A stretch of DNA of 64,000 bases from Candidatus Rariloculaceae bacterium (GTDB taxonomy: Bacteria; Pseudomonadota; Gammaproteobacteria; Steroidobacterales; Rariloculaceae). Of the stretch, positions 38,420 through 55,024 are shown one piece after another; the stretch's first letter is position 1; every line of letters starts with the position of its first letter. A program made the position numbers and the translations under genes. The stretch is from assembly GCA_965221035.1 (NCBI GenBank), contig OZ244860.1:3733414-3797413 (forward strand). The letters are read 5' to 3'. The notes under the pieces are model-generated. The model did no database searches and had not been told where the DNA came from. It saw only the letters and a list, made by a program, of their open reading frames with translations.

Positions 38420-39328
38420 TCACTTGGGCACGAACTTGTCGCGATTCATGAAATGGAAGAGTTGCGTCGAATCCTTTTCCATGGGCATTGCGCGGGGAAC
38501 CCAGTCGTCGTCGTGCAGGTCCATGTCGGCGTCGTATTCGACGTGGATGCCGAGTGGACTGTTGAAGTACCAGAACCAGTTCGACCCAAGGATGTGGCGA
38601 CCGGGTCCCCAGAACGTCTCGTACCCCTTGTCGGCAAAGCGGTAACCGGCCTGCAGGAATTCGGTGGGACCTGCCATGTGAAACGTGAAGTGTTCGCAGC
38701 CTTGCATGAAGGGCGGTGTCTGTATCATGAACAGTGTGTGATGCTCGTTGGTTCCCGCAGGCCGCATGAACGCGCCAACGCCAAGGAACCGGTCCGTCGT
38801 GACAAAACCGAGACGCCGCGCGTAGAAGGCTTCACACTTGTCCGAGTCAGGCACGAAATAGACCACGTGCGACAGCGTGCGGGGCCTCGGGTCCGCATCG
38901 GGGTCCGCGGCGACCTCGTTGACCGGCCGCAGTGGCGGGGCGCCCGGAGAGTTGACCGGCTCGCCGGGCAAGTCCAGTTCCCTGCGCACGGTGACCTGGA
39001 ACCCGAGGGAGAATCCAAGGTCGTCCTCGGCTTCGATGGACCCGTCCGCGAGCGTCCGGACCTCACGATCCTTGCCGAGCTCCGCAGCAATGGCTTCCAC
39101 CGTGGCCTGGTCGGCGACGCCATAGAGCGTCTTGCGAAGCATGTTTCCGGTCTCAAGAGGCGCTGGCAGCGACTTGTCGCTCCTGGCCTTGATCACGACG
39201 GATGTGCCATCCAGCGCTTCGAATACGCCCTCGCCCCTGGGATGAAGGCCATAGTCGATGAAATACCGGGTGCAAGCTTCGATGTCGTCGACGCCGAAGA
39301 TCAGGGAATCAGGTCCGATGATGTTCAT
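38420..39328 (-). CDS. Two-domain VOC extradiol dioxygenase (FdeC-like), intact copy
   Basis: LSHVVYFVPD, HHTLF, EHFTFH, WGPGRHILGSNWFWYFNSP..HVEY. Confidence 0.88.
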   Translation of the reverse strand: MNIIGPDSLIFGVDDIEACTRYFIDYGLHPRGEGVFEALDGTSVVIKARSDKSLPAPLETGNMLRKTLYGVADQATVEAIAAELGKDREVRTLADGSIEAEDDLGFSLGFQVTVRRELDLPGEPVNSPGAPPLRPVNEVAADPDADPRPRTLSHVVYFVPDSDKCEAFYARRLGFVTTDRFLGVGAFMRPAGTNEHHTLFMIQTPPFMQGCEHFTFHMAGPTEFLQAGYRFADKGYETFWGPGRHILGSNWFWYFNSPLGIHVEYDADMDLHDDDWVPRAMPMEKDSTQLFHFMNRDKFVPK

Positions 39329-39589
39329 TGGTGCTCCTCTTGGTGCAGGATCCACCCGATGCGACACAAAGTGGTTCCGGTGCGAAGCCCTGAATTGAAA
39401 CACTCGCACGAGAACAAGTCGAATTGATTCTCCTTATGGCAACCCACAAGCAATCAAACCGGGGCCCCTCGAATCGGATCATTGGGCGGATGGCGCCCGA
39501 GGCGTTATCCTTGGCTTCCTAACCTGGGGGCCATCATAAAGGCGACCATCGCATGTCTGAAAAGCAGTATTGATTGTTGGTGGCCGCTC

Positions 39590-39727
39590 CCTTTCAAGAC
39601 CGTCGACAGGCGCCAGGATGACCCACCGGTTCTTGTCGCCACAGCTGATCGCAATCGTGAGGTTCTGGATTGGATACCGAACTACGATAATCTGGAAGCT
39701 ATTGCCCGGACGGCGTTAGCCTGGTAG
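39590..39727 (+). pseudogene. C-terminal remnant of galE-like UDP-glucose 4-epimerase
   Basis: RRQDDPPVLVATADRNREVLDWIPNYDNLEAIARTALAW resembles the GalE C-terminus; rest absent. Confidence 0.65.
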
Positions 39728-40036
39728 GAGTAGCTCGCCCAGGAAACGGCCTAATGCGATCAACAGAATCACGCGTCATGGGAATGATCCAGACCTGCTA
39801 GCCGGCTGCAATCACGGTCCAGCCAAGCAAATGGACGCCGACGTACAGGCATGTGTATCGCCGGACAACTCTCAAACACAACCCGCGCCTCGGAAACGCT
39901 TCGTGCTATGGTCGTGGCTGGGGCTCTGGCCAATGGGCTCCCCATCCGGCCACCGACTGGGCAGCGTCCCAACCGCCGGCCAGGTCTACGCATGACTCAC
40001 AGGCCTGAGGCGAAGCCCCGCCAGAGGAACAAGCAC

Positions 40037-41008
40037 ATGACATTAAAGACCCCCTACCGCGCGGATCATGCCGGCAACCTGCTGCGCCCGAAGGTCGTGC
40101 GCGTTTTGCTCGCCATCGTCGCCTTGGGCATGGCGTCTACCGTACCCGCGCAAAGCGAGGACGAACTGTGTATCACTTTGCTGGGCACGGCCGGCGGCCC
40201 GATCGGCATGCCGGAGCGGGCCGGCATCGCGAGTCTTGTTTCTTTCAGAGATCGGCATTACCTCGTCGACGCCGGCGACGGTGTGGCGCGCCAGCTCGCG
40301 TCCGCCGGCCTGGACGGACACGACCTTGAGGCAGTGTTCCTTACTCATTTGCACGACGATCACACGGCGGGGCTGCCGGCGCTCGCAAGTTTCTTCTATA
40401 CGACCCGCGGCGAATCGATGAACATTCTCGGGCCGCCCGGGACCGGCGCCCTTGTGGATGGCCTGATTGCTTTCCTGCAGCCGAATGCCGACATTCGAAA
40501 GGTCCAGAACAGGCTTGGGCTGGAGCCGAAAGCCGTGTTTCATGGAATGGAGATCGAGCCAGGGCCGGCCTGGGCGGATGACACTGTCCGCGTCGCGGCA
40601 GCCGACAACACACATTATCGCGTGTCGGCACAGGCATTTGCCGGCCGCCAGCGGAGCTACGCGCTGAGGTTCGAGGCAGGCGAAGCGAGCATCGCGTTTA
40701 CGGGCGACACCGGCGACAGCGACGAGGTAACGAGGCTTGCGCGGGATGCCGACATCCTGGTTGCTGAAGTCGCGACGTTCAGCGATATTGAGGCGGTCCC
40801 GCCGGTTATCCGCGAGCACATGGTCCTGGAACACCTGTCGCCGGGGCAGGCCGGGCAGCTGGCCACGGCTGCCAACGCCGGCAGGCTGGTGGTGTCGCAT
40901 GTCCGCGAAATATCGGCGACCGACCTTGACGAGATCGCTCGGCACTACGACGGACCGATAGCCCTCGGGCAGGACCTCGACAGGTATTGTGTGCCTTCAG
41001 GCGGGTAG
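40037..41008 (+). CDS. Exported MBL-fold (RNase Z/AtsA-like) hydrolase; N-terminus looks chimeric
   Basis: LLGTAGGP, VDAGDG, THLHDDH, FTGDT, HLSP, VVSH; signal-like segment ending VPAQS. Confidence 0.85.
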   Translation: MTLKTPYRADHAGNLLRPKVVRVLLAIVALGMASTVPAQSEDELCITLLGTAGGPIGMPERAGIASLVSFRDRHYLVDAGDGVARQLASAGLDGHDLEAVFLTHLHDDHTAGLPALASFFYTTRGESMNILGPPGTGALVDGLIAFLQPNADIRKVQNRLGLEPKAVFHGMEIEPGPAWADDTVRVAAADNTHYRVSAQAFAGRQRSYALRFEAGEASIAFTGDTGDSDEVTRLARDADILVAEVATFSDIEAVPPVIREHMVLEHLSPGQAGQLATAANAGRLVVSHVREISATDLDEIARHYDGPIALGQDLDRYCVPSGG

Positions 41009-41202
41009 GCTCGGCCGATCTGCCGGAAGTTTGTTCTGTAGAACGGTTTGCGCCAAGGCGGCTCGGACTGCCGCCTTTTTCGTGGACGATCCAGCCGATA
41101 TTCAGGGTGCGTACCTTTCGCGCATGTTATGTTTGGCGTGATTAACGCGGATGCGCTAGTCTGCGGGACTTACTGGACTCTCTGCGAGGCGAGCAGAATC
41201 GT

Positions 41203-42318
41203 ATGAATGAATTGAGCATACTTGTCGTCGGCGGCGGCATCGGCGGGCTGACGTCGGCCATCGCACTGGGCCAGCGCGGATACAAGGTGGAGGTCATCGA
41301 GAAAGATCCCGACTGGTCCGTTTACGGCGTCGGTATCATCCAGCAGGCCAACGTGATACGCGCGGTGACGGCGCTTGGCGTCATCGACGATTACATTGAG
41401 GCCGGCTATGGCTACGATTTCGTGGAAATCTATACGCCGGACGATCGGTTGGCGGCCAAGGTTCCGGTGAAGCGCCTCGTAGATGGATACCCGGGACAGC
41501 TCGGTATCGGCCGGCCCGCACTGCAAAAGGTTCTGGCCGACCGGGCGCAAGCCGAGGGTGCGGAAATACGCCTCGGTGTGACCGTGTCGAGGCTGGATGA
41601 CGACGGCACAGGTGTGGATGCTGCGTTTTCCGACGGGTCGAGTGGTCGCTACGATGTAGTGGTCGGTGCCGACGGTCTGTATTCGCAGATGCGGGAACTG
41701 TTGTTCCCCGACGCCCAAAAGCCCGAATTTGCCGGCCAGTCGGTATGGCGTTACAACTTCCCGCGCCCCGACGATGTTGTGAACATGCATGCGTATGAAG
41801 GCACGATGGGCGTCGGTCTCGTGCCGCTGTCCCGGGAACTGGTGTACATGTATCTGACTACGCCAGAGTCCGACAGTGCGCGGTACCCGCGCGAGGGCAT
41901 TGCCCGGGCGATGCGCGAGAAGCTGAAGGACGCGCCTCCGAGGATGACGAAACTGGGCGAGCAGATCACCGACGACGACGGCGTCGTATACAGGCCTCTG
42001 GACTGGCATTTTCTCGAAGGTGACTGGCACAAGGGCCGCACAATACTGATCGGCGACGCGGCGCACGGTACAACTCCGCACCTGGGCCAGGGCGCCGGCA
42101 TGGCGATTGAGGACAGCCTTGTTCTGGCAGAGGAGCTGGAACGCCGCGACTCGGTTGATGCCGCGTTCGCCGCCTTCCGGAAACGCCGTTACGAGCGCTG
42201 CAAGTACATCGTCGACGCATCGGTCGCAATCTGCAGAGGGCAGATCGGCAAGGGCCCGCTGGTCAATTATCCGAAAGCCACGGCCGAGATGATCCGCGTC
42301 ACGTCAGAGCCGCTCTGA
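41203..42318 (+). CDS. Flavoprotein monooxygenase (FdeE-like)
   Basis: VVGGGIGGL, VVGADGLYS, LIGDAAH..TPHLGQGAGMAIED. Confidence 0.92.
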   Translation: MNELSILVVGGGIGGLTSAIALGQRGYKVEVIEKDPDWSVYGVGIIQQANVIRAVTALGVIDDYIEAGYGYDFVEIYTPDDRLAAKVPVKRLVDGYPGQLGIGRPALQKVLADRAQAEGAEIRLGVTVSRLDDDGTGVDAAFSDGSSGRYDVVVGADGLYSQMRELLFPDAQKPEFAGQSVWRYNFPRPDDVVNMHAYEGTMGVGLVPLSRELVYMYLTTPESDSARYPREGIARAMREKLKDAPPRMTKLGEQITDDDGVVYRPLDWHFLEGDWHKGRTILIGDAAHGTTPHLGQGAGMAIEDSLVLAEELERRDSVDAAFAAFRKRRYERCKYIVDASVAICRGQIGKGPLVNYPKATAEMIRVTSEPL

Positions 42319-42399
42319 TGGCGCTATTGGGAGACTGACCGAACCGTGTCTGGCAGCCTCTCGGTTGTCATCCTTTTGTTGGCATCGCAAGCGCTGCCT

Positions 42400-42797: not shown

Positions 42798-43221
42798 CCT
42801 ACCAGAGGCGGCGAACAGACCAGCCAGAGCCAGTTACTTCAGGCACACGAGAATCATCCGTCAGGGTCGAACGCTTACTTGAGCGGCATTGGCTTTCGAT
42901 CAATCGTCGTCGGTGTAAACGGCAACCAGGAAATTCGCATCCGCATGTCGACCTCGACTTCGTGATCGACTTCCGCAAGTCCGCCATGTCCAGGTACCTC
43001 AATGCGGGCCTTTTCACCGAAGTTCCAGCGATCGCCGTATTCGGTTTCCAACTCGTCGAGCGATCAGCTTCGACCTCCATCCAGCGATTGCCCTCGTATT
43101 CGGAGCAGGAGTTGTCAAAGGCCTCGGCATGGCGAATGATACAGGGGTGGTCGAAATGCAAGGGTGCATGTTGGCGGCGTTACGCCGCCGAGGCCGATTT
43201 TCTGTCATTTGAGGACGCAAT

Positions 43222-44406
43222 ATGGCGCTTTTCGAGTATTTCCCCAACTATGTGTGGAACCTTTCGGTCGCCATCGCCCTGGAAAACGGCGGCAAGATCG
43301 GCGAGATCGTCGACATGTGCCAGCCGATCGTCGATGCAGCCGCCGACGGTGAAGACGCCGGAACAGCGGAATTCCTGGCCGAATGGGTGCGGATGGCCGA
43401 CAAGCTGGTGGGTCTTGCCGGCGAGGACGAGGCGGCAGGTCGAGAATTCTCCGCCGGAAACAAGCTCAAGCGCGCATGCATCTACTACATCACCGCCGAG
43501 CGCATGCAGGGGCATGGCCACCCGGGGCGCATGGAAACCTACCGAAAAGGACTGGATGCTTTCGCGAAGGGCACGCGCTTCGCTCGCGACAATGTCGAAC
43601 GCGCCGAGATTCCGTACGGGGACGGCGCGAGGCTGTCGGCCTACCTGACGCTGCCCGAAGTAGACGGTCCGTGCCCGGTCGTCGTGTTCTGCAATGGCCT
43701 CGACAGTTGCAAGGAAATGTTGTGGCTGGGCGGATTCCCCTACGCGCTGGCCAGACGCGGTATCGGTTGCTTGTGCGTCGACCAGCCAGGAACGGGCGAG
43801 GCCTTGCGCCTGGAGCGTCTTCCAGCCACGCATGCCAGTGAAGAGTGGGCGTCGGCATGGGTGGACTGGCTGGTCGGGCAACCCATCGCCGACGCGGACC
43901 GTATCGGCATGGCGGGCATCTCGCTGGGCGGCCACTTTGCACCGCGTGCGGTTGCGTTCGAGCCGCGCTTTGCGTCCGGGGCCGCGTGGGGTGCCAATCA
44001 CAATTGGGCCGAAGTGCAGCGCAAGCGGCTCAGGCGCGAGGGCGAAAATCCCGTGCCGCATTACTGGGATCACGTCCGGTGGGTGTTCGGCGCCAGCGAC
44101 ATGGACGACCTATTGAAAAAAGTCGATGGGATGACGCTCAATGGCGTCATGGACCGCATCCGGGTGCCCTTCCTCATCACTCATGGCGCCCAGGATCGCC
44201 AGATCAGCGTCGACTACGCGCAGCAGAGCTATGATCAGCTGGTCAATTCGCCACGGCGGAAACTGAAACTTTTCACCGAGCGCGAGGGTGGCGTGGAGCA
44301 TGTCGGTGCGGACAACATGTCCTTCGGAAACGACTACATTGCCGACTGGTTTGCCGAAACGCTCGGTGGCCGGACTGCGTACGCGTCGCCTGGTGCCACA
44401 CAATAG
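43222..44406 (+). CDS. Alpha/beta hydrolase, 2,6-dihydroxy-pseudooxynicotine hydrolase-like
   Basis: NGLDSCKE, DQPGTGE, GISLGG nucleophile motif, GGVEHVG. Confidence 0.9.
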   Translation: MALFEYFPNYVWNLSVAIALENGGKIGEIVDMCQPIVDAAADGEDAGTAEFLAEWVRMADKLVGLAGEDEAAGREFSAGNKLKRACIYYITAERMQGHGHPGRMETYRKGLDAFAKGTRFARDNVERAEIPYGDGARLSAYLTLPEVDGPCPVVVFCNGLDSCKEMLWLGGFPYALARRGIGCLCVDQPGTGEALRLERLPATHASEEWASAWVDWLVGQPIADADRIGMAGISLGGHFAPRAVAFEPRFASGAAWGANHNWAEVQRKRLRREGENPVPHYWDHVRWVFGASDMDDLLKKVDGMTLNGVMDRIRVPFLITHGAQDRQISVDYAQQSYDQLVNSPRRKLKLFTEREGGVEHVGADNMSFGNDYIADWFAETLGGRTAYASPGATQ

Positions 44407-44520: not shown

Positions 44521-44610
44521 ATGCCCCGCAGATTCGTCGATCTCTCCATCTGCCTGGAGAACGAAGTCATCACGGACACGCCATTCATGCGGCCGGAGAT
44601 CACTTCATGA
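44521..44610 (+). pseudogene. 5' stub (29 codons) of cyclase gene
   Basis: MPRRFVDLSICLENEVITDTPFMRPEITS versus MAQRFVDLSIYLENDVISDPPFMRPKIEY at 49086; retains GGAGG RBS. Confidence 0.85.
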
Positions 44611-45569
44611 AACTCGCAACGGTCGATGACGGCAGCCGCGACGGCAGACTGGTCGTCGTGTCCTCGGACGGGAAGCGCCGCGCGCCGCTTCCCGGTGTGG
44701 CTACCATGCAGGCCGCGCTGGATGACTGGGCGTCGGTAGAGCCCGAATTGCGGTCGCTGTCCACGGTCGTCGATGGCGGCGCAGGTGAGTCGACATCGGA
44801 GGCCGACTTCCGCGCGCCGCTGCCGCGCGCCTGGCAGTGGCTTGATGGATCGGCATTCGATTCGCATGGCGACCTGATGCAGAAGGCGTTTCGGCTCGAT
44901 CCCATTGAAACGGACGCGCCGCTGATGTACCAGGGCATGTCACACCTGTTCTACGGGCCGACCGAGGACGTGCCCTTCGTCAGCGAGGCCGACGGCATCG
45001 ACTTCGAGGGCGAATTCGGTGTCATCGTCGATGACGTTCCTATGGGCACCGGCGCCAGCGAGGCCATGGAGCGCATCAAACTGCTCGTACAGCTCAACGA
45101 CTGGTCCCTGCGCGTGCTGGGGCCGAAGGAGATGAAGACGGGCTTCGGTTGGGTTCAGGCAAAACCGGCCTGCGCGATGGCGCCGTTTGCCGTTACGCCA
45201 GATGAGCTTGGGGATGCCTGGCGTGACGGCCGGGTGCACCTGCCGCTGGAAGTGCGCTGGAACGGCAAGGTGTTCGGCGTGGCCAATGGAGGCGCCATGA
45301 GTGTCGGCCTGCACGAACTCGTCGCTCACGCGGCTGCCACGCGACCACTGTGCGCGGGCACGATCATCGGTACGGGCACGGTCTCAAACGAAAATTGTCG
45401 CGAGATCGGCTCGTCGTGCATAGCCGAGCGCCGCGGCATCGAAATCGTCGACCAAGGTGAGCCCTCGACGCGTTACATGACGTTCGGTGATCGCGTCCGG
45501 ATGGAGGCGAGGGCGCTCGACGGCGGTGTGTTATTCGGTGCGATCAATCAGAAGGTAGTCCGGGTATGA
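44607..45569 (+). CDS. Fumarylacetoacetate hydrolase family protein (FdeI-like)
   Basis: PLPRAWQWLDGSAF, DFEGE, NDWSLR, QAKP, GTGTVSN. Confidence 0.92.
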   Translation: MKLATVDDGSRDGRLVVVSSDGKRRAPLPGVATMQAALDDWASVEPELRSLSTVVDGGAGESTSEADFRAPLPRAWQWLDGSAFDSHGDLMQKAFRLDPIETDAPLMYQGMSHLFYGPTEDVPFVSEADGIDFEGEFGVIVDDVPMGTGASEAMERIKLLVQLNDWSLRVLGPKEMKTGFGWVQAKPACAMAPFAVTPDELGDAWRDGRVHLPLEVRWNGKVFGVANGGAMSVGLHELVAHAAATRPLCAGTIIGTGTVSNENCREIGSSCIAERRGIEIVDQGEPSTRYMTFGDRVRMEARALDGGVLFGAINQKVVRV

Positions 45570-46090
45570 GCCAGCTAAAGGTACTCAAAGGCAAGAGCCA
45601 GCTATCAAGGCCATTCCGCCGCATCGTAACCGGGCACGACCGCCGGGGTCACGCCGTGTTCCGATCGATCGATACGCTGACTCCCGAACCGATCCCTAGC
45701 GGGGATGCGAATTTTGCGACCATATGGAGTACGGCCGAGGTCCCCGTTGATCTAAACGACGAAACGCACGGGGGCGAGAGGGCCGTCGGGCTCACGATCA
45801 ACAGAGGCTCCGTGATTCGCGTGGTGGATATGTTGCCCGGCGGCGAGTCGCCGATGCACCGTACCAACAGCATCGACTACGGCATAGTGCTTGCGGGCGA
45901 GGTAGAACTCGAACTGGACGATGGTGTTGTGGAGACTTGCCGCGCGGGCGATGTCATCGTGCAGCGGGGCACGATCCACTTGTGGCGCAACACAAGCGAT
46001 TCGGAGATCTGCCGCATCGTATTTGCGCTGATCGAGGCCAGGGGACCCTACCTGTACGACGGCGAGCCGCTGGAAGAATTGAAGCCATAG
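45566..46090 (+). CDS. Cupin (FdeH-like)
   Basis: RRIVTGHD, PMHRTNSIDYGIV, QRGTIHLWRN. Confidence 0.9.
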   Translation: MSQLKVLKGKSQLSRPFRRIVTGHDRRGHAVFRSIDTLTPEPIPSGDANFATIWSTAEVPVDLNDETHGGERAVGLTINRGSVIRVVDMLPGGESPMHRTNSIDYGIVLAGEVELELDDGVVETCRAGDVIVQRGTIHLWRNTSDSEICRIVFALIEARGPYLYDGEPLEELKP

Positions 46091-46099: not shown

Positions 46100-47062
46100 A
46101 TGCGGGTCGTGGTAACGGGGGCAGGGGGATTTGTCGGGAGGCGACTCGTGGCGAGGCTCGACGGGCACGAAGTCGTGGCCATCGATCAGGCGCCGCCTGA
46201 GTCCGTTGCCGAATTCGACCACGTCACGGCGTTGACCGGCGATTTGTGCGATTCGAGCGTCCTGGACGCGGCCTTTTCCGGCGGGTGTGATGCTGTCGTC
46301 CATCTTGCAACCGTTCCAGGGGGTGCCGCAGAGCGGCAACCTGCGCTGGCGAAAAAGGTGAACGTGGACGGCACCATGGCCTTGGGAGACGCCGCCGTGT
46401 CTGCGGGGCAATGTCCTCGCTTCATATTCGCCAGCAGTGTTGCGGTGTTTGGGAATCCGCTGCCCTCAAGGGTGAATGACGCCACACCACTGACACCGCG
46501 AATGTACTACGGTGCGCACAAGGCCATGATTGAGCAGTGGCTCGCCACGCTCACGCGCCGCGGCGCGTTGCAGGCGCTGTCCTTGCGCCTGTCCGGCGTT
46601 GTCGCGAGGCCGCCCGGTCCGTCCGGCATGAAATCGGCATTTCTTAGCGAGGTCTTCCACGCCTTGATTGCGGGGAGGAACTTTGTCATGCCGGTATCGC
46701 CCGGCGCCACGTCCTGGGTCATCTCGCTGGACCGCGCCGTGGACAATCTCTTGCATGGGCTGGAACTGGATATGAGGTCGGTTGGCCATGACCATGCGGT
46801 CAACTTGCCGACATTGCGCGTCAACATGTCCGATCTCGTGGCAGAGATCGCCCTGCAGACAGGCGCCGACAGCGAACAGATTTTCTACGAACCTGACAGG
46901 GCGATCATGGCGGCATTCGGTTCGCTGCCGCCGATCGATACGACCGCCGCCGAAGCACTCGGCTTTGCCAACGACGGTGACCTCGAGAGTCTGGTTGCCC
47001 GAGTGGTTGCCAGGCTCGGCGCGGCATCAGACGATCTGAATGCCCTTGTAGGCGAGCATTGA
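46100..47062 (+). CDS. NAD-dependent epimerase/dehydratase (FdeJ-like)
   Basis: VTGAGGFVG, FASSVAVFG, YGAHK. Confidence 0.9.
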   Translation: MRVVVTGAGGFVGRRLVARLDGHEVVAIDQAPPESVAEFDHVTALTGDLCDSSVLDAAFSGGCDAVVHLATVPGGAAERQPALAKKVNVDGTMALGDAAVSAGQCPRFIFASSVAVFGNPLPSRVNDATPLTPRMYYGAHKAMIEQWLATLTRRGALQALSLRLSGVVARPPGPSGMKSAFLSEVFHALIAGRNFVMPVSPGATSWVISLDRAVDNLLHGLELDMRSVGHDHAVNLPTLRVNMSDLVAEIALQTGADSEQIFYEPDRAIMAAFGSLPPIDTTAAEALGFANDGDLESLVARVVARLGAASDDLNALVGEH

Positions 47063-47896
47063 ACCGTCCCATTGCTCTTCCACCAAGAATGAGTGTTCAA
47101 GGATGCCGTCCCGGAATACGCTGTCCGAATCGTTGTTCGTGTCCTTTCGCTGTCCGGTGTAGTCTGAATGATTGAGGTAGATGTCGTTTGCGAGATCGTC
47201 ATCGAATCCAAACTGTGAGACCAGACGTTCCACTCCTTCCACCACCACGCGGAAGTGAATGTGTGTAGTACGGCCTCGATACCAACCCGGGAAACATGCG
47301 CGGAAATATACATTGCCGATGCTATCGGTTGTCTGTACGCCCCGGAACCACTTGGCGGACAATGCGTCAGAGTCGTTCTCGGTACAGAAACCGGAATTGA
47401 AATTGCTGACATTGCCCGTGCTGCCGGAGTTGTCGCCGGAGTAAACTCCCTCCCAGTTCACCCACCACACCTCGATGATGGCCCCCATGATCGGGTTGCA
47501 GTCCGCGTCAACCAGCTTTAGCGCCAAAGTCATCGGCACACCGGGCTGACCTTCAGAAATATCTTCGCGAAAATCATCCGTGTCAAAGTAACAGGGGCCA
47601 ATGGTGAAACGGTCCGTGCCGGTGACCGTGCACATCACGTTCCCAAGAGACAGATCGAGTGGGTCACTGGTTGGAGGGAACTCCGCCTGCATCGCGGCTG
47701 TGCCGCCGGCAAGCCATCGGGTGGTGTTGGTCCTGTCGCCGCCGCCAACAACGGGGGAACCGTCGCCTGATGAGCCTGCTCCGGAGGCGCCGTCGCCGGG
47801 ATTGACGTCGCCGCCGCTGCTTGACCCGCAGGCTGGGAGCAGGACTGCCGCGCTTCCAGCAACCATCATCTCCAACGCTTCGCGTCGACTGTTCAC
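47027..47896 (-). CDS. Intradiol-dioxygenase-like protein with Tat signal and lipobox
   Basis: SRREAL...LLPAC; GPCY, REDISEGQPGVP, GVYS, FRGVQTTD, FPGWYRGRTTHIHF. Confidence 0.85.
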   Translation of the reverse strand: MNSRREALEMMVAGSAAVLLPACGSSSGGDVNPGDGASGAGSSGDGSPVVGGGDRTNTTRWLAGGTAAMQAEFPPTSDPLDLSLGNVMCTVTGTDRFTIGPCYFDTDDFREDISEGQPGVPMTLALKLVDADCNPIMGAIIEVWWVNWEGVYSGDNSGSTGNVSNFNSGFCTENDSDALSAKWFRGVQTTDSIGNVYFRACFPGWYRGRTTHIHFRVVVEGVERLVSQFGFDDDLANDIYLNHSDYTGQRKDTNNDSDSVFRDGILEHSFLVEEQWDGSMLAYKGIQIV

Positions 47897-47913
47897 AAGA
47901 CTTCCCAAGTGTT

Positions 47914-48297
47914 TCAGTGTGTTGTGGCGAGTGCCGCCATGCGAGGTCCGTAAACCACGTGTGACATGCCATGGTATATGAGTGGCTTATCGGTTTCTAT
48001 GGGATCGAGCCCGAAGGCTTTTTGCATCAGGTCGCCGTGGGTGTCGTACGCCGAACCGTCAAGCCATTGCCACACGCGCGGCAGCGGTGCTGCGAACCGG
48101 GTATCGCTCGTCGATTCGCCGCCAACATCGTCAAGATCGGATTGGGCAGACTCGACTTCGCGGCATGCTTGCCGCCAATTCTCCATCGCCCATTGCATTG
48201 TCCGGCCGTTTCCGGCGCCAAGATATCGAGCACCATCCTGTGACACGACGACAAGTTCGCCATCGGGAGTTTGACCTGGGATCGTCGCCAGTCTCAC
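47914..48297 (-). pseudogene. Truncated second copy of the FAH gene
   Basis: Aligns to the first ~115 aa of 44607-45569, then stops. Confidence 0.85.
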
Positions 48298-48306
48298 AGC
48301 CGTTCC

Positions 48307-49086
48307 CTACTCGTCAAAGATCGCAACAGCGCGTGTCCAACCAGCCGATGCGCCACGAATCTTGTGTGGGAAACAGCTGACCGTGAAACCCGAAGGCGGC
48401 AGCACTTCGAGGTTATGCAGTTTTTCGAGATGACAATAGCCGATATCACGGCCCGCCTTGTGCCCCTCCCAGATCAAAGACGTGTCACCGGTCTCCTTGA
48501 CTTTTTCAGCTGTATACGAAAATGGTGCGTCCCAGCTCCAAGCATCGGTGCCCGTCACCCGAACACCTTTTTTAAGTAGGTACATTGTGGCCTCATAGCC
48601 CATACCACAACCGATGTTTACGAAATTCGGGTCACCCAGCGCCTTGCCGGCCGCTGTATTAATAAGAACAATGTCCATCGGTTTGACCTCAACACCGATT
48701 CGATCCAGTTCTGCTTCGACTTCGGCGGCGGTCACAACATGCCCGTCTTCAAGATGCCGAAAGTCAAGTTTGATGCCCGGGCGGAAACACCAATCCAGGG
48801 GAACCTCATCGATTGTTATCGCACGTTCGCCGCCGTCCATGGTTGGATGAAAATGCCAGGGCGCATCGAGGTGTGTGCCGTTGTGTGTCGACAGTGTCAC
48901 CTCCTCCGCAGCCGCAAACCCCCCGCCTCCGGGAAAGTCATCGGCCTCGACACCCGGGAAGAAGGTGCGCGCTTCCGTCACCGTTTCTTCGTGCTGCTTG
49001 TACTCGATCTTGGGCCGCATGAATGGCGGGTCGGAAATCACATCGTTTTCAAGATAAATAGAGAGATCGACGAATCGTTGTGCCAT
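48307..49086 (-). CDS. Cyclase-family protein (FdeG-like), intact copy
   Basis: HNGTHLDAPWH, GTDAWSWDAP, WEGHKAG, EKLHNL. Confidence 0.92.
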   Translation of the reverse strand: MAQRFVDLSIYLENDVISDPPFMRPKIEYKQHEETVTEARTFFPGVEADDFPGGGGFAAAEEVTLSTHNGTHLDAPWHFHPTMDGGERAITIDEVPLDWCFRPGIKLDFRHLEDGHVVTAAEVEAELDRIGVEVKPMDIVLINTAAGKALGDPNFVNIGCGMGYEATMYLLKKGVRVTGTDAWSWDAPFSYTAEKVKETGDTSLIWEGHKAGRDIGYCHLEKLHNLEVLPPSGFTVSCFPHKIRGASAGWTRAVAIFDE

Positions 49087-49113
49087 GTTCGCCTCCGAGC
49101 GAAGAAAATCCAA

Positions 49114-49345
49114 TTACGAGGTATGGCCGCCCAATGTCTCAGCAAACCAGTCGGCGATGTATTCGGCGCCGATGACGACGTCGTAGTTACCACTCGTGCC
49201 GTCCGAGAATGAAACTTCGACACCGTCGGCATCTTCGTTTATGTCCTCAACAACTACTACCCGTCTTACGTTCGTTCCTTCTGCCCTAGCACGATCTGCG
49301 AGGAATTTTTGCAAGGCAGGCCTACCGATACCGAGCTGTGAAGGA
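49114..49345 (-). pseudogene. Fused remnant: monooxygenase fragment joined to hydrolase C-terminus
   Basis: YPSQLGIGRPALQKFLADRA...YDVVIGA (cf. 41203 gene) runs directly into EYIADWFAETLGG (cf. end of 43222 gene). Confidence 0.88.
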
Positions 49346-49370
49346 TATTCAGTCTATCGCGGCCCCAACT

Positions 49371-49417
49371 ATCATCCAAGCTATTTGTTTTTATGGTCAC
49401 GTAATACTCTCATTTAT
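49371..49417 (-). promoter_or_regulatory. nod-box-like 47-bp site (class II, N8)
   Basis: Minus strand ATA-AATGAGAGT-ATT-ACGTGACC-ATA-AAAACAAAT-AGC-TTGGATGAT. Confidence 0.6.
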
Positions 49418-49513: not shown

Positions 49514-49611
49514 GCCCCTCGGCATGGTTAAATTGCTAGCGACTCAAGGCCCATGCTCGATGCGTGACCGTTGACGCTTCTACTCACAGTAGTCTGTCCG
49601 GAGGGGACAAC

Positions 49612-51984
49612 ATGAACATTCGAAATCAATCTGGTCTTCTCGCTGGCGTTTTGCTGGCTCTAATTCCGGGATTAGCATTTTTTGCGAACCCGGCGCGAGC
49701 GCAAGACAGTGGATTAGCACTCGAGGAAATCGTGGTTACGGCGGAGCGGCGAGAAACATCACTGACAGAAACACCGGCTGCGATTGTGGCGATTACCGGT
49801 GCTGCAATCGAATCCGCAAACATTAACAACCTAAACGAGCTAACATTGACGACGCCCGGAATCAACATTCAGGGCATTAATCGAAACCAGCAATATGTTG
49901 CCATGCGAGGCAACATCACCGAAGGTGGCGATGCGGGTCTCGCCCAGTCCATCGGGTTCTTTATTGATGGTCTGTACTTCGGACGTTCGTCACTGTTCAA
50001 CCAAAGCCTGTCCGATGTCGAGCGAGTCGAAATCCTGCGCGGTCCGCAAGGCACCCTGTGGGGACACAACATTGTCGGCGGTTCCATCAACGTCATCACC
50101 AAGGACCCGACTCAGGAAGCTGAAGCAGACATTAAGGTGTCAGTCGGCAACCATAGTCGTCAGGAAGTTTCCGGGCGCGTTGCCGGCGGCCTCGCAGAGA
50201 ACCTGGCCGGTCAGTTGTCTTTCGCTTCTGAAACGGCTGACGGTTACGTTACCAATCTGGACAGCGGTCAGGACCTGGGCTCCGAAGACGTGTTCCTGCT
50301 GCGCGGCAAACTGGTGTGGGACGTGACGGATAATTTAAGTGCGAAATTTACCAGCACTTTCCAGAAAGACACTTCCGAGATGAACGCACGCATCTTCTTG
50401 CCGGGACCGGACGCCATTCGAACACCTCCACCGCCAGGAAGAACTGCTCCAATTCTCTCGACGTTCGTCATTCCCGAAAACTACGAAAAAGAAACCTACC
50501 AGCGTTCTGCGATTGGTACCAATGACTTCGAAACTATTGTTGCAAGCCTGGGGCTGGACTACAGGTTTGAAAACGGCGTGACGTTCTCGAGTCTGACCGG
50601 CTCCGTTGATTCCGAAGGATTTGTCGACAATTTCGGTTTCTTCCCCTTTCCGGAGAGTTTCGGGAAAATCGAGCGCGATCATGGCTACGAAGACAAGTCG
50701 TTCTCACAGGAGTTTCGTTTGTCCGGCGATACCGATTCGTTGTTCTGGCAGGTTGGCACTTACTACTACGACGCGAGCAATGAACAGGCTCAGTCAACGG
50801 GAACTTGGGGCCTGCCATTTACGCGTGCAGGAAACGACAACATCGCTGATATAGAAGGCAACAACGACGGAGAAACGCGCTTCCAGGATTTTGCGGACTC
50901 CGAGACGGAGAGCCTTGCTTTCTTCGGGCAAGCGACGTGGGCCGCGAACGCCTGGCTCAGTGTCACAGCCGGTGTTCGACACACCGAAGTCGACAAAGAC
51001 TTCTACGCGCTGATTGATGGCGAAGCGCATCGCCGATGGTTTGCGGAGCAGGCTATAGATTGCACCGATGTCGCAGATCCAGGTCCGCGGTTCTGCCGAA
51101 TCGAAAGAAACGAGTCTCAAAGCTGGTCGAATACCTCACCGAAAATCACGTTGGACGGAAAGTGGGACGACGTTGGCATGTTCAACAGCCTGATGACCTA
51201 CGTCACCTATTCCGAAGGATGGAAAGAGGGCGGATTCCAGTCCCCCAATTCCACAATCCAGGATGTTGAGCTATTCAGGATCGACCCGGAGTCTGCCGAG
51301 AATATGGAATTCGGAATCAAGTCCGGTTTTTGGGACAACCGTGCCACCTTTAGCATTGCCGTATTCAATACTGAATACATCGGCCAACAGACCAGCCAGA
51401 TCGTCAACGATCAACTGCTCACATTTAACCTTGATTCCGAGATTGACGGTGTCGAAATCGACGGCAGTCTCGCGGTCGCGGAGTGGCTCACTTTGAGCTA
51501 TTCCGCTGCATTCTATGACTCAGCCTATGCTCCGGGAGCATCCATTGGTCCGAGTCCTCAGGACGACGTCGGCGGCAACAATACCGTTGGCACCCCTGAT
51601 GCCAGTTACACGATCAGCTGGGATGCGGGTACTACTCTAAACAATAACTGGGAACTGTTCTTTACGGGTGGGTACTCCTTTACGGATGCCGTGGAATCCG
51701 ATCCCGACAATGCCATTGCGGCTGCCGACGCGGTCGGTCGCGACCTGTTGCGATTCACGGAGTCGGAAATTCTGAATACGACGCTGGGCATTCGCAACGA
51801 CAACTGGGAGATTTCCCTCTGGGGTCGCAACCTGCTTGATGATTTCGTTGCCACCAACGTCGCCAGCTTTGCGGACTTCTGGCTGCTCAATGCCTGGGCA
51901 GCAGACAATCCGAATGTCGCGGTATTTGAAGGTACACCCGCCGAGCCGATGACATATGGTCTGGCCGTCCGTTTCGCTTTCTAG
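49612..51984 (+). CDS. TonB-dependent receptor
   Basis: LEEIVVTAERRE, VERVEILRGPQGTLWG, PMTYGLAVRFAF. Confidence 0.95.
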   Translation: MNIRNQSGLLAGVLLALIPGLAFFANPARAQDSGLALEEIVVTAERRETSLTETPAAIVAITGAAIESANINNLNELTLTTPGINIQGINRNQQYVAMRGNITEGGDAGLAQSIGFFIDGLYFGRSSLFNQSLSDVERVEILRGPQGTLWGHNIVGGSINVITKDPTQEAEADIKVSVGNHSRQEVSGRVAGGLAENLAGQLSFASETADGYVTNLDSGQDLGSEDVFLLRGKLVWDVTDNLSAKFTSTFQKDTSEMNARIFLPGPDAIRTPPPPGRTAPILSTFVIPENYEKETYQRSAIGTNDFETIVASLGLDYRFENGVTFSSLTGSVDSEGFVDNFGFFPFPESFGKIERDHGYEDKSFSQEFRLSGDTDSLFWQVGTYYYDASNEQAQSTGTWGLPFTRAGNDNIADIEGNNDGETRFQDFADSETESLAFFGQATWAANAWLSVTAGVRHTEVDKDFYALIDGEAHRRWFAEQAIDCTDVADPGPRFCRIERNESQSWSNTSPKITLDGKWDDVGMFNSLMTYVTYSEGWKEGGFQSPNSTIQDVELFRIDPESAENMEFGIKSGFWDNRATFSIAVFNTEYIGQQTSQIVNDQLLTFNLDSEIDGVEIDGSLAVAEWLTLSYSAAFYDSAYAPGASIGPSPQDDVGGNNTVGTPDASYTISWDAGTTLNNNWELFFTGGYSFTDAVESDPDNAIAAADAVGRDLLRFTESEILNTTLGIRNDNWEISLWGRNLLDDFVATNVASFADFWLLNAWAADNPNVAVFEGTPAEPMTYGLAVRFAF

Positions 51985-52059
51985 CACGGTGAGACTGCGT
52001 GCCGCACTGGTTCTACTGTGCGCCGACCCGCCCTGAGCCGATGTCAGGTACGGATCACC

Positions 52060-52597
52060 ACCGCGCTGAGCACGACATCTCGAAGCAATGACGCGTTGAT
52101 CCTGGCCTACGATGTGGTCCCCACGATGCTGGAGCTTGCTGGTGTTGAATCAGGATCGCGTGTTGGTACAGGTGATATGCTGCCAATTACAGGACGATCG
52201 TTTACCGGCCTGCTGCGAGACGGTGGCCGGTTTATAGCCCGAGATATGAATGATCCCGTGGGACGGGAGCACGGTGGCAACGCCGCGATTCGCATTGGCG
52301 ACTGGAAGCTTTTGTGGGTCGGTGAGCGAGAGCCATACCTCGGCGAGAAACCGGGGAAACCCGGCCTTGGTCCAATGTCCGGCCCTCCAATGCCCCGTGA
52401 ACGGCTTCGATCGAGGCAGTCCGGCGGGTACGCCTATTGGCAACGGAGGCCCATGGAGGCTCTACAACATCAAGGGCGATCCGGCCGAACGCAATGAGTT
52501 GTCAGTGAAGCATCCGGAAATCGTCGAAAAACTTCTTGCTGAGTGGGAAGAGTACGTGACCGAATATGGCGTGCTCGTGAAATCCAGAGAGAAATAG
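52060..52597 (+). pseudogene. C-terminal fragment of arylsulfatase, frameshifted
   Basis: DVVPTMLELAG, GRSF, AIRIGDWKL, then WRLYNIKGDPAERNEL..KHPEIVEKL in another frame; catalytic N-terminus missing. Confidence 0.8.
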
Positions 52598-52619
52598 CGC
52601 CCTGGGTAGCTGTCTGGTT

Positions 52620-53279
52620 TTACTCTTTATCGCTCACGATTGTCACGGCCTGGCTCCTGATACGATCCAGCAACCACAATAGACCCTGATCTGCAGTTCG
52701 GGCCCTGAAGAATTCGGCCTCACCAATCTCAAGCTGAAAGATCGGGTTCTCAGACCATCCGACGATGACGTGCGGCTCCTCGAAAATCAATTCCGACGGG
52801 TGTTGCGCAACCATGAATTCCTCTGGAATAAGCATGGCGTCGATTTCACCGCGCTCGAACTCGACTCGAATTGCATCGTCTGGAAGCCGGGTATCCAAAC
52901 GGATGCCCGGCGCCACTCGCTCAAGCTCCGAAGCAAGGGGTATAAGTAATACTGTGGTGATGTAGTCTGAAGCCATGAACCTGAACACGCGCTCCGAACG
53001 AAGCGGATCAAATTCGGCCGACATCGAGATCATGCCATCCACCTGGCGGAGAATGCGTCGAACTTCTGGCTGCAGATCCTCGGCGTACGACGTCGGGATC
53101 ATCCGTTTGCCGTGTAGCACCAGGATTTCGTCTTTAAAGTAGTCGCGAAGCCGACCAAGCGCTGCGCTGGCGGCCGGCTGGCTGACGTACAGTCGCTCAG
53201 CGGCTCGCGACACACCGCGCTCTTCAAGCAATACGTCGAGGGCTACCAGAAGATTGAGGTCCAAGCCTTTCAGCCGCAT
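52620..53279 (-). pseudogene. NodD/FdeR-like LysR with in-frame deletion of ~80 codons in the effector domain
   Basis: Near-identical N-terminus to the 61919 gene; jumps from ...EAEFF to RARTADQGLLWL. Confidence 0.8.
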
Positions 53280-53289
53280 GAATCCACTT

Positions 53290-53336
53290 ATAATTTGGGT
53301 GACTGTATTTCCATTAAAACAATTAATTGGAATTAT
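53290..53336 (+). promoter_or_regulatory. nod-box-like 47-bp site (class II)
   Basis: ATA-ATTTGGGTG-ACT-GTATTTCC-ATT-AAAACAATT-AAT-TGGAATTAT. Confidence 0.65.
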
Positions 53337-53389
53337 AACAATCGCGATGTTGTGATCAGAGTATGCTCACCTGTGCCGGGAGGGGATAT

Positions 53390-53852
53390 ATGAACATTAT
53401 CGGTCCTGATTCGCTGGTATTTGGCGTCGATGACGTCGATGCCTGCACTCAGTACTTCACGGATTACGGCCTTGAACCTGTAGGTGACGGGAGGTTCGAA
53501 GCGCTGGATGGCACCTCTGTCGTCATCAAGCCGAAAGATGACGAGTCACTGCCGGCAGCGCTCGAGACCGGCAGCATGTTACGCAAGACCGTAGCGGGCC
53601 GCCAATGTCATTGGTGTCGACCCGGCGGCGGATCCAAAGCCGAGAACGCTATCGCATGTGGTCTATTTTGTGCCCGATCTCGCGAAGTTCGAGGCATTTT
53701 ATGCAGAGCGTCTTGGCTTCATAACAACAGACCGATTTACAGGTGTGGGACCGTTCATGCGTTCGGCCGAAATGGCCGAAGACAGCTCTCAGATTTTTCT
53801 TTTCACGTTGCGTGACAACTGGATACCCACCGGTGGACCGCCTGACGAATAA
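53390..53852 (+). pseudogene. Second copy of the VOC dioxygenase with two internal deletions
   Basis: MNIIGPDSLVFG...MLRKT / PKPRTLSHVVYFVPD...GPFMR / short C-terminus; all match pieces of 38420-39328. Confidence 0.88.
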
Positions 53853-54243
53853 AGACGCGGAAACTGATGAGAGGGTAGTCGAGCTCTGCGCTTTCGACGA
53901 ACTGGAAGACGGCAAAGCTCGCGGTTTCGATGTGCGTGCTGAGGGCCGAGACACACTGTTCGTTGTGCGCCGCGGCGAGTCGCTAAGCGCTTTTCGCAAT
54001 TGGTGTCCGCACCAGGGAGCATCGCTGCCCTGGCGAAAGAACGCCTATCTCAACGCCGACGGAACGCGAATCGTGTGCAGCGCGCACGGCGCCCAATTCG
54101 ACATTGGCAGTGGCGAATGCTTGCTCGGGCCGGCACTGGGGCAATCATTACGCCGTGCGGATGTCTCTGTTGGCGATGACGGCAGAGTCCGGGCTGCATG
54201 CCAGCCACGCATAGATCGAATCAAAAGGAGTATCGATGATTGA
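53833..54243 (+). CDS. Rieske [2Fe-2S] ferredoxin (FdeD-like)
   Basis: CPH and CSAHGAQF motifs, GECLLGP; start uncertain. Confidence 0.9.
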   Translation: MDRLTNKDAETDERVVELCAFDELEDGKARGFDVRAEGRDTLFVVRRGESLSAFRNWCPHQGASLPWRKNAYLNADGTRIVCSAHGAQFDIGSGECLLGPALGQSLRRADVSVGDDGRVRAACQPRIDRIKRSIDD

Positions 54244-55024
54244 GTTTTACGACAACGACATGTCCGTATGCGCACAAAAGGTTCGCCTCGTGCTTGCGGA
54301 GAAGAACTTGGATTATGAGCGGCATAACCTTGACCTGCGGGCGGGTGACCAGTTCAAGCCCGACTATCTGAAACTCAACCCAAAAGCAGTGGTACCGACG
54401 ATTGTTCACGATGGAGACGTGGTCGTCGAGTCGACCGTGATTATTTCCTACCTTGACGACGCATTCGAAAAGGCATCGCTGACCCCGGACACGGCGTTTG
54501 CTCGCGCCTGTATGCTGCAATGGATGATTCTCCCGGACGCAGGACTACATGACACTTGCGGCCTTACGAGTTTTGCACTGGCTTTCCGTAAACAACTTGC
54601 GGTGCTGGAGCCAGACAAGCTCGAGGCGCACTACGCGAAGATGCCGGATGAAAAACGCCGCGGCCACATTCGATCGCTCGTAGAGCAAGGTCTCGACGCA
54701 CCCGGTGTTGATGCTGCGTTGCGACATTACAGGAAAGCCATAGATTCGATGGCGGCAGCGCTGGAAAAGTCGTCGTGGCTTGCCGGAGAACTCTATTCGC
54801 TTGCGGATATTACGATGTTGCCCTATGTGTTACGGCTGCAGCACCTGGGCCTCGACTGGTTCTGGTCTAATCTCCCGCAGATAATTGAGTGGTTTGAGGC
54901 ATCGCGTCGACGTAACAACTATCGCGCGATTGAAGAGCACCTCAATCCGAAATATCTGGCCATTATGAATGCGGATGCCGCTGAGAACCGCAGCAAGATC
55001 GAGCATATGCTCGAAACGCCATAA
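54236..55024 (+). CDS. Glutathione S-transferase family protein
   Basis: SVCAQKVR, LNPKAVVP, ESTVI..YLDD, WLAGE.YSLADI. Confidence 0.92.
   Translation: MIEFYDNDMSVCAQKVRLVLAEKNLDYERHNLDLRAGDQFKPDYLKLNPKAVVPTIVHDGDVVVESTVIISYLDDAFEKASLTPDTAFARACMLQWMILPDAGLHDTCGLTSFALAFRKQLAVLEPDKLEAHYAKMPDEKRRGHIRSLVEQGLDAPGVDAALRHYRKAIDSMAAALEKSSWLAGELYSLADITMLPYVLRLQHLGLDWFWSNLPQIIEWFEASRRRNNYRAIEEHLNPKYLAIMNADAAENRSKIEHMLETP

Follow-up and report, generated by a model that had tools for sequence, protein, structure and literature searches.

The stretch of DNA considered here, referred to throughout as the window, comprises 64,000 nucleotides from Candidatus Rariloculaceae bacterium (Gammaproteobacteria; Steroidobacterales), at positions 3,733,414 to 3,797,413 of contig OZ244860.1 (assembly GCA_965221035.1). 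Between positions 38,420 and 55,024 it carries two gene clusters, here called copy A and copy B, which lie in inverted orientation and whose enzymes resemble those of the fde and ifc clusters for flavonoid degradation. Both are damaged, and the damage is roughly complementary. One of the questions raised by such an arrangement is whether the two clusters are held together by selection or whether they are simply spares in decay. The answer depends in large part on what is found elsewhere on the chromosome.

Gene content of copy A

Copy A occupies 38.4-47.1 kb, and the gene content proposed for it in the original prediction is borne out almost to the base by the open reading frames (ORFs) and their Pfam matches. 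At its left end is VOC_A (38420..39409, minus strand; 329 residues; PF00903), an intact extradiol dioxygenase of the FdeC/IfcB type with the VOC (glyoxalase) fold, which is 76% identical to its counterpart in a further cluster on the same chromosome (copy C, below) and 62-76% identical to its relatives across 80 public loci (denoted by L numbers; related genomes by G numbers). Only 22 bp separate VOC_A from the adjoining transporter gene, and the same transporter gene adjoins the locus in G013, but with a different gene arrangement. On the plus strand a metallo-beta-lactamase-fold hydrolase, MBL_A (39851..41008; PF12706 and tblastn), sits in the position that LysR takes in the canonical cluster and is 36% identical to MBL_C. 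It is followed by FMO_A (41203..42318, plus strand; 371 residues; PF01494, and NCBIfam NF005313 above its cut-off), an intact FAD-dependent aromatic monooxygenase of the FdeE/IfcA class that is 84% identical to those of G012 and G013, as against 76% to copy C of its own genome. Next come ABH_A (43222..44406, plus strand; 394 residues; Pfam), an intact alpha/beta C-C hydrolase with 77% identity to copy C, and, beyond the cyclase position, FAH_A (44607..45569, plus strand; 320 residues; PF18288 and PF01557), an intact enzyme of the fumarylacetoacetate-hydrolase family with 69% identity to copy C.

The cyclase itself is reduced to a stub of 29 codons (44521..44610, plus strand; recognised by translation and alignment) with its own GGAGGA ribosome-binding site, in which 22 of 28 residues are identical to the N-terminus of cyclase_C. 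The TGA of the stub overlaps the ATG of FAH_A (ATGA), which argues for a clean deletion running from cyclase codon 29 to the start of FAH and leaving FAH_A translationally coupled to the stub. No trace of a Rieske or a LysR gene was found in copy A by tblastn.

Copy A closes with two genes that have no second copy in the genome. The first, cupin_A (45566..46090, plus strand; PF07883), has elsewhere only a 46% match over 61 residues in a genome-wide tblastn search, and is 74% identical to the cupins of L006, L014 and L027. The second, epim_A (46100..47062, plus strand; PF01370), is an epimerase-type SDR, likewise single-copy by genome tblastn and 58-63% identical to its relatives in the same three loci.

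A further loss, which had gone unseen in the first reading of the sequence, lies in the 0.9-kb spacer between FMO_A and ABH_A. Here tblastx against L032, L038 and L052 picks out the remnants of a two-subunit C-glycoside deglycosidase (42881..43170, minus strand), with 27 residues of the alpha subunit and residues 82-146 of the 148 of the beta subunit. The clusters in those three loci have intact C-glycoside deglycosidase genes, the L032 genes matching PF01261 and PF19906, and tblastn found no intact C-glycoside deglycosidase anywhere in the genome.

Gene content of copy B

Copy B (47.9-54.2 kb) was described beforehand as an inverted cluster in which the cyclase and the Rieske gene are intact and the remainder are deletion remnants, and ORFs, Pfam and tblastn all agree with this. 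The homology between the two copies is nested, colinear and inverted by blastn, tblastx and a repeat finder: there are six inverted-repeat pairs of 33-200 nt with 73-77% complementarity, the tblastx matches are at 57-76%, and nucleotide identity is 71-80% over short pieces. With intact proteins as tblastn queries to delimit the remnants, at least six deletion events can be counted in copy B.

Adjacent to copy A is the FAH_B remnant (47914..48297, minus strand), which retains residues 1-118 followed by nine unrelated codons and a stop, and matches PF18288 only (Pfam, tblastn and translation). It is followed by cyclase_B (48307..49113, minus strand; 268 residues), an intact member of the PF04199 cyclase family of metal hydrolases (E 2.4e-36), which is 87% identical to copy C and 90% identical to L004; a PDB sequence search returned no solved relative at E 1e-5. 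Beyond the cyclase are a scrap of the hydrolase comprising its last 25 residues (366-390; 49117..49191, minus strand; tblastn E 1e-4, within inverted repeat I5) and the FMO_B remnant with residues 95-167 of 371 (49132..49350, minus strand; tblastn E 1e-20).

Between FMO_B and LysR_B are an intact TonB-dependent receptor of 806 residues (49564..51984, plus strand; Pfam Plug domain) and unk52018 (52018..52497, plus strand), an ORF of 159 residues with no Pfam match that has a 68% homologue near the cluster in L003/L096. Insertion of the receptor gene was considered as the cause of the truncation of LysR_B and FMO_B and rejected, as the 3' end of LysR_B and the promoter motif of FMO_B are both present. 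LysR_B (52620..53279, minus strand) is an ORF of 219 residues that keeps its helix-turn-helix (HTH) domain and carries an in-frame deletion of residues 194-274, tblastn recovering pieces 1-193 and 275-304 of LysR_C alongside the Pfam match. On the other strand the VOC_B remnant (53390..53846, plus strand) is left with three pieces (residues about 19-109, 148-213 and 297-325), among which tblastn and the translations reveal a single frameshift and a single in-frame deletion (~214-296); over 145 columns the remnant is 86% identical to L004. The last gene of the set is Rieske_B (53833..54243, plus strand; ORF open from 53743; PF00355), a small, intact Rieske [2Fe-2S] protein with its CxH...CxxH ligands kept and 71% identity to Rieske_C.

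A third cluster on the same chromosome

The picture changes once the search is extended beyond the window. When every protein of A and B was compared by tblastn with the whole 3.818-Mb chromosome, a third cluster, copy C, was found at 1542391-1552342 and 1562700-1569183, 2.2 Mb away from the window copies. It gives full-length matches to VOC (76%), FMO (76%), hydrolase (77%), FAH (69%), cyclase (87%), LysR (82%) and Rieske (62%), and each of these seven core genes has an uninterrupted, full-length ORF and the Pfam domains proper to it, one of them being an intact LysR of 308 residues. In its first part the order is GST (glutathione S-transferase), MBL, Rieske and VOC on one strand, and LysR, TonB receptor, a second monooxygenase and GH3 on the other; the second part holds the monooxygenase, hydrolase, TonB receptor, cyclase and FAH. 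The 10 kb between the two halves (1552500-1562440; L001/L002) encode a TRAP transporter, an SDR, the mannonate dehydratase UxuA, a sulfatase and a GH3 enzyme.

Counted over the genome, VOC, monooxygenase, hydrolase and FAH are each intact twice (A and C), as are the cyclase and the Rieske protein (B and C). Intact LysR genes are found in C and in module D, a set of genes near copy B described below, and in neither A nor B, while the cupin and the SDR are the only single-copy genes, both in A. The claim that copies A and B sum to one complete set thus fails on LysR, and the statement that each duplicated gene survives exactly once is untrue given the second intact copies in this tally: copy C holds all seven core genes, and LysR has been lost from both A and B. 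Nor is each function confined to exactly one genomic copy, as complementary degeneration of duplicates would have it. Three copies in one genome is unusual among the relatives searched, since an FdeC-type VOC at 69% identity or more occurs in only two of 30 (G011 and G025), in one copy each.

Family membership and the likely substrate

What kind of cluster is this? The gene families had been likened to those of the Herbaspirillum fde naringenin-degradation set, a match that finds indirect support in the ifc paper, the VOC loci and the hydrolase relative. According to the ifc paper (PMC11069340) and its preprint, FdeE and IfcA are FAD monooxygenases that hydroxylate at C8 and are 36.3% identical to one another, whereas FdeC and IfcB are glyoxalase-type dioxygenases that open the A ring and are 65.8% identical. 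The same source describes in the ifc cluster an alpha/beta hydrolase (locus 59470) whose closest relative is 2,6-dihydropseudooxynicotine hydrolase, together with the cupins IfcD1/D2. The fde operon of Herbaspirillum seropedicae is controlled by FdeR, a LysR-type, naringenin-responsive activator, as cited in PMC11069340 and PMC11303751.

The components of the window follow this pattern. VOC_A is 64-70% identical to the enzymes of Oxalobacteraceae and Variovorax loci with fde/ifc-like neighbours. FMO_A, with its PF01494 and NF005313 matches and 34-42% identity to the monooxygenases beside VOC-Rieske in Burkholderiales loci (similar to the 36.3% between IfcA and FdeE), would belong to the FdeE/IfcA type. 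ABH_A has as its best PDB relative 2,6-dihydroxypseudooxynicotine hydrolase (2jbw, E 6e-19), as for the ifc hydrolase, and cupin_A, the IfcD-like member of the set, is 30-37% identical to the cupins of Burkholderiales loci and 61-74% identical to those of marine loci. An FdeR-like LysR divergent from the dioxygenase is present in C; in A it has left no trace and in B it has the internal deletion. NCBIfam contains no fde-specific model. The assignment to the fde/ifc family appears supported on this evidence, with the proviso, which counts against it, that the Herbaspirillum FdeC and FdeE are known here by description only.

A scan of one genome per species with the VOC alignment matched at least 599 stretches, at least 499 of them coding for a relative; the 80 best of these make up the loci considered here. 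Nine of the 80 (L003, L004, L006, L012-L016 and L040), all from marine Gammaproteobacteria, have LysR-FMO-hydrolase-cyclase-FAH divergent from VOC-Rieske(-MBL), with a cupin in five and an SDR in two; A, B and C are all variants of this order. Most of the other kept loci, mainly from Burkholderiales including Variovorax, Massilia, Duganella and Paraburkholderia, have hydrolase-VOC-Rieske-monooxygenase followed by cyclase, cupin, FAH and SDR. Clusters of the fde/ifc type, known from soil and root bacteria, are thus common in marine Gammaproteobacteria (records of Woeseiaceae-like organisms, Halieaceae, Pseudohongiellaceae and SAR86), including strains in sponge metagenomes.

By analogy, the FAD monooxygenase would hydroxylate the aromatic ring, which would then be opened by the VOC extradiol dioxygenase with its adjoining small Rieske protein. 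The alpha/beta C-C hydrolase, the cyclase-family hydrolase, FAH, the cupin and the SDR would process the product. The substrate would be a flavonoid or flavonoid glycoside, a link made through the deglycosidase remnants in A and the GH3, sulfatase and UxuA genes within C. As some of the clusters carry C-glycoside deglycosidase, GH3 or sulfatase genes, conjugated flavonoids are suggested, and the genes for UxuA, a sulfatase and GH3 that separate the two halves of copy C suggest glycosylated, glucuronidated or sulfated forms as the real substrates.

It is possible, if somewhat unlikely, that the clusters instead degrade a different hydroxylated aromatic compound present in the sea or in sponges, the likeness to fde/ifc lying at the level of enzyme family only. 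The nearest relatives are indeed in marine Gammaproteobacteria, with related strains in sponge metagenomes, the monooxygenase reaches only 34-42% identity to the Burkholderiales clusters, no dedicated fde model exists, and the activity of the clusters is predicted from sequence alone. Set against this is the VOC, whose 64-70% identity holds between lineages from sea and soil that share its neighbouring genes and is comparable with the 65.8% between FdeC and IfcB (PMC11069340). In addition, C-glycoside deglycosidase genes, a family named for the deglycosylation of C-glycosides, are found in the clusters of relatives and as remnants in A, and glycoside hydrolases lie within copy C.

Age and origin of the copies

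That the copies are clearly diverged, so that a second acquisition would account for them better than a recent duplication, had also been proposed, and base composition, synonymous divergence and supported tree branches agree with it. The synonymous distance (dS) is 1.2-2.7, and hence saturated, for all A/B, A/C and B/C pairs. GC content at third codon positions (GC3) ranges over 0.73-0.78 for A, 0.59-0.64 for B and 0.61-0.74 for C, against a genome GC of 0.628, and a GC trough from about 47 to 63 kb spans copy B and module D. In the monooxygenase tree A groups with C and with G012/G013, of the same genus, in a starred clade of six rows with support 100, the B remnant falling outside it. In the VOC tree the B remnant groups with C and L004, within a starred clade of nine rows (support 96) that leaves A outside. 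The cyclase tree places B beside G012/G013/G001 (support 92), away from C. FAH by itself gives no order of the copies, approximately unbiased (AU) tests rejecting none of A+B, A+C or A+B+C (p 0.18-0.29). Given the GC3 values, the saturated dS and the monooxygenase and VOC branches, A and B are not sister duplicates, and their descent from a single duplication in this lineage is not what the data show. Second acquisition fits, and the copies look like mosaics.

A comparison of the ratio of nonsynonymous to synonymous divergence (dN/dS) between intact genes and remnants had been put forward as a check on the decay. The values are similar, 0.06-0.25 for the B remnants and 0.05-0.20 for the intact genes (0.05 for cyclase_B against C), and this likeness speaks for breaks that are young relative to the divergence of the copies; with dS saturated and the ratios alike, the comparison does not show relaxed selection. 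The end branch of the VOC_B remnant, at 0.13, equals that of VOC_C.

Strain variation in copy B

Of ten sequencing runs listed, four (X1-X4) were compared, as contigs, with window positions 38000-57000 at 90% likeness. X1, with a share of words of 1.00, is possibly the source sample, and X2 comes from another study; at this likeness 38000-46340 has no contig cover in X2, a gap that is no sign that copy A is absent from that strain. X3 and X4 are sponge metagenomes from two studies and have almost no cover of 44340-44973, where the cyclase stub lies.

Over copy B the X3 and X4 contigs are 97.1-99.6% alike to the window, but they carry the cluster in other states. At 53769 contig sequence runs on into VOC sequence that is wanting in the window (the 214-296 deletion), and in both X3 and X4 unk52018 is absent (joint 51989>52467). 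Beyond 49343 the X4 contig enters the N-terminus of the monooxygenase, whereas that of X3 joins the hydrolase from residue 234 or so through to its C-terminus, with the cyclase next, an allele that has no monooxygenase and keeps a part of the hydrolase lost in the window. X3 has in addition a further deletion in LysR_B and, on the GST side, 55063 joined to 56437, without the IS66 fragment and the nitroreductase gene.

The states of the window, X3 and X4 all change at coordinate 49343, a short way downstream of the conserved promoter motif, where there may be a breakpoint common to all three, a hot spot for deletion or simply the limit of the alignment.

A scan of metagenome contigs with cyclase_B gave 592 relatives, the best at 84% identity, and none was a near-identical copy B with intact neighbours. 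Since the deletions vary between strains, the dN/dS of the remnants is not raised and the end branch of VOC_B is no longer than that of VOC_C, the decay of copy B would be recent and strain-variable, pending read-level confirmation of the joints.

Promoter motif and probable control of the surviving genes

In copy C both the monooxygenase and the first TonB receptor gene are preceded by a 26-nt motif, CCATAAAAACAATTAGTTTGGCTGAT, with a TAGACT-like -10 box after it. Six sites with at most six mismatches occur in the genome, two each in B, C and D. Those of copy B, from the genome motif scan, are at 49371..49396 (minus strand), upstream of the FMO_B remnant with three mismatches to the copy C version, and, more weakly, at 53311..53336 (plus strand) in the LysR_B-VOC_B spacer with six mismatches; those of module D are at 61886 and 62869. 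The motif is also found upstream of the monooxygenase in L004, L014, L016/L098 and L097, and had no matches in 40 shuffled loci. Copy A retains only its 3' half. A scan of 47000-55200 for sigma-70 promoters and terminators gave one promoter-like and six terminator-like sites, with no excess over shuffled sequence.

The first 70 residues of LysR_B, LysR_C and LysR_D, covering the HTH regions, are 79-86% identical. Because the motif is retained and these regions are alike, it is plausible that the original promoters of cyclase_B and Rieske_B continue to drive their transcription, with LysR_C or LysR_D acting on them in trans. The motif, as a conserved promoter/operator element, provides a testable handle on the regulation of the copies.

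Decay of spare clusters or a divided pathway

How, then, is the complementary look of A and B to be understood? The interpretation we favour, with a probability of about 0.68, is that the window holds two of three diverged fde/ifc-type clusters for the oxidative cleavage of the A ring of flavonoids, and that redundancy has permitted the decay of both. With a third, intact cluster elsewhere in the genome, the roughly complementary damage looks like the ordinary decay of spares. Redundancy with copy C would permit gene losses in A and in B, and on that ground their complementarity would be largely a matter of chance. Copy A, which has native base composition, would be the mostly intact cluster, having lost its cyclase, Rieske and LysR genes together with the C-glycoside deglycosidase. 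Copy B would represent another sub-lineage of the family, carried on a low-GC segment of about 16 kb with module D and the IS66 scrap; it would be a later, lower-GC arrival whose dismantling, by at least six deletions that differ among closely related strains, is still under way.

Rough arithmetic is in keeping with a role for chance. Of the seven core genes A has lost three and B five, so that the minimum possible overlap is one, which is the LysR, and the hypergeometric probability of an overlap of exactly one is 3/21, or 0.14. The five decayed genes of B make up some 81% of the core length, and with random placement the probability that six deletions would all fall inside them is about 0.28. 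On these figures neither the overlap nor the placement of the deletions calls for selection. The original prediction had held that the pattern implies selection on the whole pathway, a view left unsupported by the seven core genes of copy C, the double loss of LysR and the chance value of 0.14, and opposed also by B deletions that differ between related strains, since such variable deletions do not describe a settled, selected state.

An account in which selection keeps one working copy per gene is unlikely, though it has more to be said for it than the complementarity itself. It would see the three copies as one distributed pathway kept complete by selection, in the manner of duplication, degeneration and complementation (DDC) at the level of operons: A would give four core enzymes and the sole cupin and SDR, the cyclase and Rieske protein of B would be kept to serve A from their own LysR-type promoters, and C would stand apart for another class of flavonoid or other substrates. 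In the window, none of the six enzyme genes that survive in A is also among the two that survive in B. The dN/dS of cyclase_B is low at 0.05 and its end branch of 0.11 is not lengthened in comparison with that of C (0.087), the B survivors retain their upstream promoter/operator motif, cyclase_B has been spared by two independent deletion alleles, and the enzymes of A and C, at 69-77% identity, could differ in substrate. Against this, every gene lost by A or B is intact in copy C, LysR is gone from both, a pattern of this kind would come about by chance with a probability of about 0.14, A and B did not arise from a single duplication, and the B deletions are polymorphic among strains. The operator motif of the B survivors is moreover wanting in A, and co-regulation of the two is for that reason not evident.

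Several observations nevertheless tell against the decay of redundant spares as a full explanation. Copy C on its own lacks the cupin and the SDR and so falls short of the ten-gene canonical set; with the cupin and the epimerase found only in A, some dependence between copies is likely. Nor are intact ORFs in C proof of expression or of an equal substrate range, FMO_A and FMO_C being only 76% identical. In copy B, cyclase_B and Rieske_B are covered by contigs of X1-X4 with no indel among the rows listed, and two different deletion alleles both end just short of cyclase_B, a sparing to be expected if both genes were under selection. True dependence of one copy on another, with the cupin and SDR in A only and cyclase_B and Rieske_B spared in every strain seen, is accordingly a possibility within the decay account as well. 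The strain states are taken from metagenome contigs at 90% likeness, whose joints can stem from other organisms or from repeats. Finally, the gene trees conflict from gene to gene and the AU tests on FAH reject nothing, so that more than one history of the three copies fits.

There is very little room for an assembly artefact, whether by the fusion of two strains into a chimera or by the collapse of a repeat. It might be suspected because the genome consists of one contig, possibly metagenome-derived, and short-read unitigs break at 43285-43319. The break in X1 and X2 is accounted for by a 35-mer common to the hydrolases of A and C, identical at window 43285-43319 and genome 1563898-1563932 although the two genes are only about 75% alike overall. 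X1 contigs at 38000-43308, 43292-48961 and 48937-57000, and X2 contigs at 46340-48961 and 48937-55192, show no differences from the window, and between them these runs from two studies bridge the stub, the A/B boundary and all the B remnants; with all junctions crossed in this way by contigs identical to the window, a chimeric assembly is excluded. Equally improbable is that one cluster was recently duplicated in place, in inverted orientation, and that reciprocal loss then went fast. The inverted, colinear arrangement of the homologous pieces might suggest this, but it is contradicted by a nucleotide identity between A and B of only 71-80% over short pieces, saturated dS, a GC3 gap of about 0.15 and starred branches that split A from B, and flanks free of gene conversion do not show near-identity.

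The decay of redundant clusters has implications of its own. The picture of two halves that make a whole, drawn from a single window, vanishes after a whole-genome search, and what replaces it is a well-resolved case of redundant catabolic clusters being dismantled by deletion, with differing deletion alleles visible in related strains. Were the distributed pathway the true account, the locus would represent degeneration and complementation at the level of operons, between clusters that are xenologous, seen at a stage when related strains of sponge-metagenome runs still differ in their deletion alleles.

Neighbouring genes and module D

Exactly where A meets B there is a lipobox-bearing gene resembling intradiol dioxygenases (47027..47908, minus strand; PF00775 and N-terminus). 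Its GC3 of 0.67 is a B-like composition, it does not belong to the canonical cluster and it had no match in the 80 related loci. It shares 36 bp with the 3' end of epim_A.

On the other side of copy B, Rieske_B is followed by GST_B (54236..55024, plus strand; Pfam), an intact glutathione S-transferase that is 67% identical to the cluster-adjoining enzyme in L098/L016. A paralogue at genome 3798014-3798710, just beyond the end of the window, matches GST_B in two reading frames and is probably frameshifted. The right edge of copy B carries an IS66-type TnpB-like fragment (55145..55648, plus strand) with a weak, below-cut-off match to PF05717 (E 2e-4). The segment 55063-55347 is multi-copy in G001, G011, G015 and G016, and in this genome it is single-copy among the matches listed.

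Module D (56442..62824; Pfam) shares the low-GC segment with copy B. It comprises MFS, MBL, FAH-family, VOC dioxygenase and VanA-like Rieske oxygenase genes on the minus strand, and LysR_D, which is intact and divergent from them (61919-62824, plus strand; Pfam). The operon is intact, its MBL is 67% identical to MBL_C, and it has the same operator motif as B and C. Genes of the module D type adjoin fde-like clusters in G001 (L097) and G025 (L098), and the module may serve in the demethylation and cleavage of methoxylated aromatic products.

Comparison with known systems

The literature searched, which returned fde biosensor papers and the ifc paper, contained no multi-copy or marine fde-like clusters. 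The closest described system is the ifc cluster of Variovorax (Aoki et al. 2024, PMC11069340), which shares with the clusters described here an FAD monooxygenase, a glyoxalase-type dioxygenase, an alpha/beta hydrolase and cupins. In the Variovorax loci L054 and L065 the VOC is 65-66% identical to VOC_A, and genes for a Rieske protein, an FMO and a cupin lie close by. The differences lie in the arrangement, which is here LysR-FMO-hydrolase-cyclase-FAH-cupin-SDR divergent from VOC-Rieske, in the monooxygenase, at only about 35% identity, in the presence of three copies per genome with two of them decaying, and in the host, a marine gammaproteobacterium in which the activity of the clusters is a predicted one.

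With the fde cluster of Herbaspirillum seropedicae, as cited in the sources above, the likeness is in the A-ring pathway itself, with C8 hydroxylation by FdeE, cleavage by FdeC and a LysR-type activator. Loci of Oxalobacteraceae (Massilia, Telluria and Duganella) have hydrolase-VOC-Rieske-FMO-cyclase-FAH and a VOC that is 64-70% identical to VOC_A. In the window, unlike in fde, the LysR is absent (A) or broken (B).

Copy A can also be compared with the two-subunit C-glycoside deglycosidases, composed of a PF19906 beta subunit and a xylose-isomerase-like alpha subunit, in that remnants of both subunits are present; only 27 and 65 residues are left of them here.

Reciprocal gene loss after duplication, or duplication-degeneration-complementation, is a general concept for the fate of duplicated units. 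The locus is like it in having two homologous units with mostly non-overlapping losses. It differs in that the units are not sister duplicates, that a third, intact copy is present, that LysR has been lost twice, and that the losses still vary from strain to strain.

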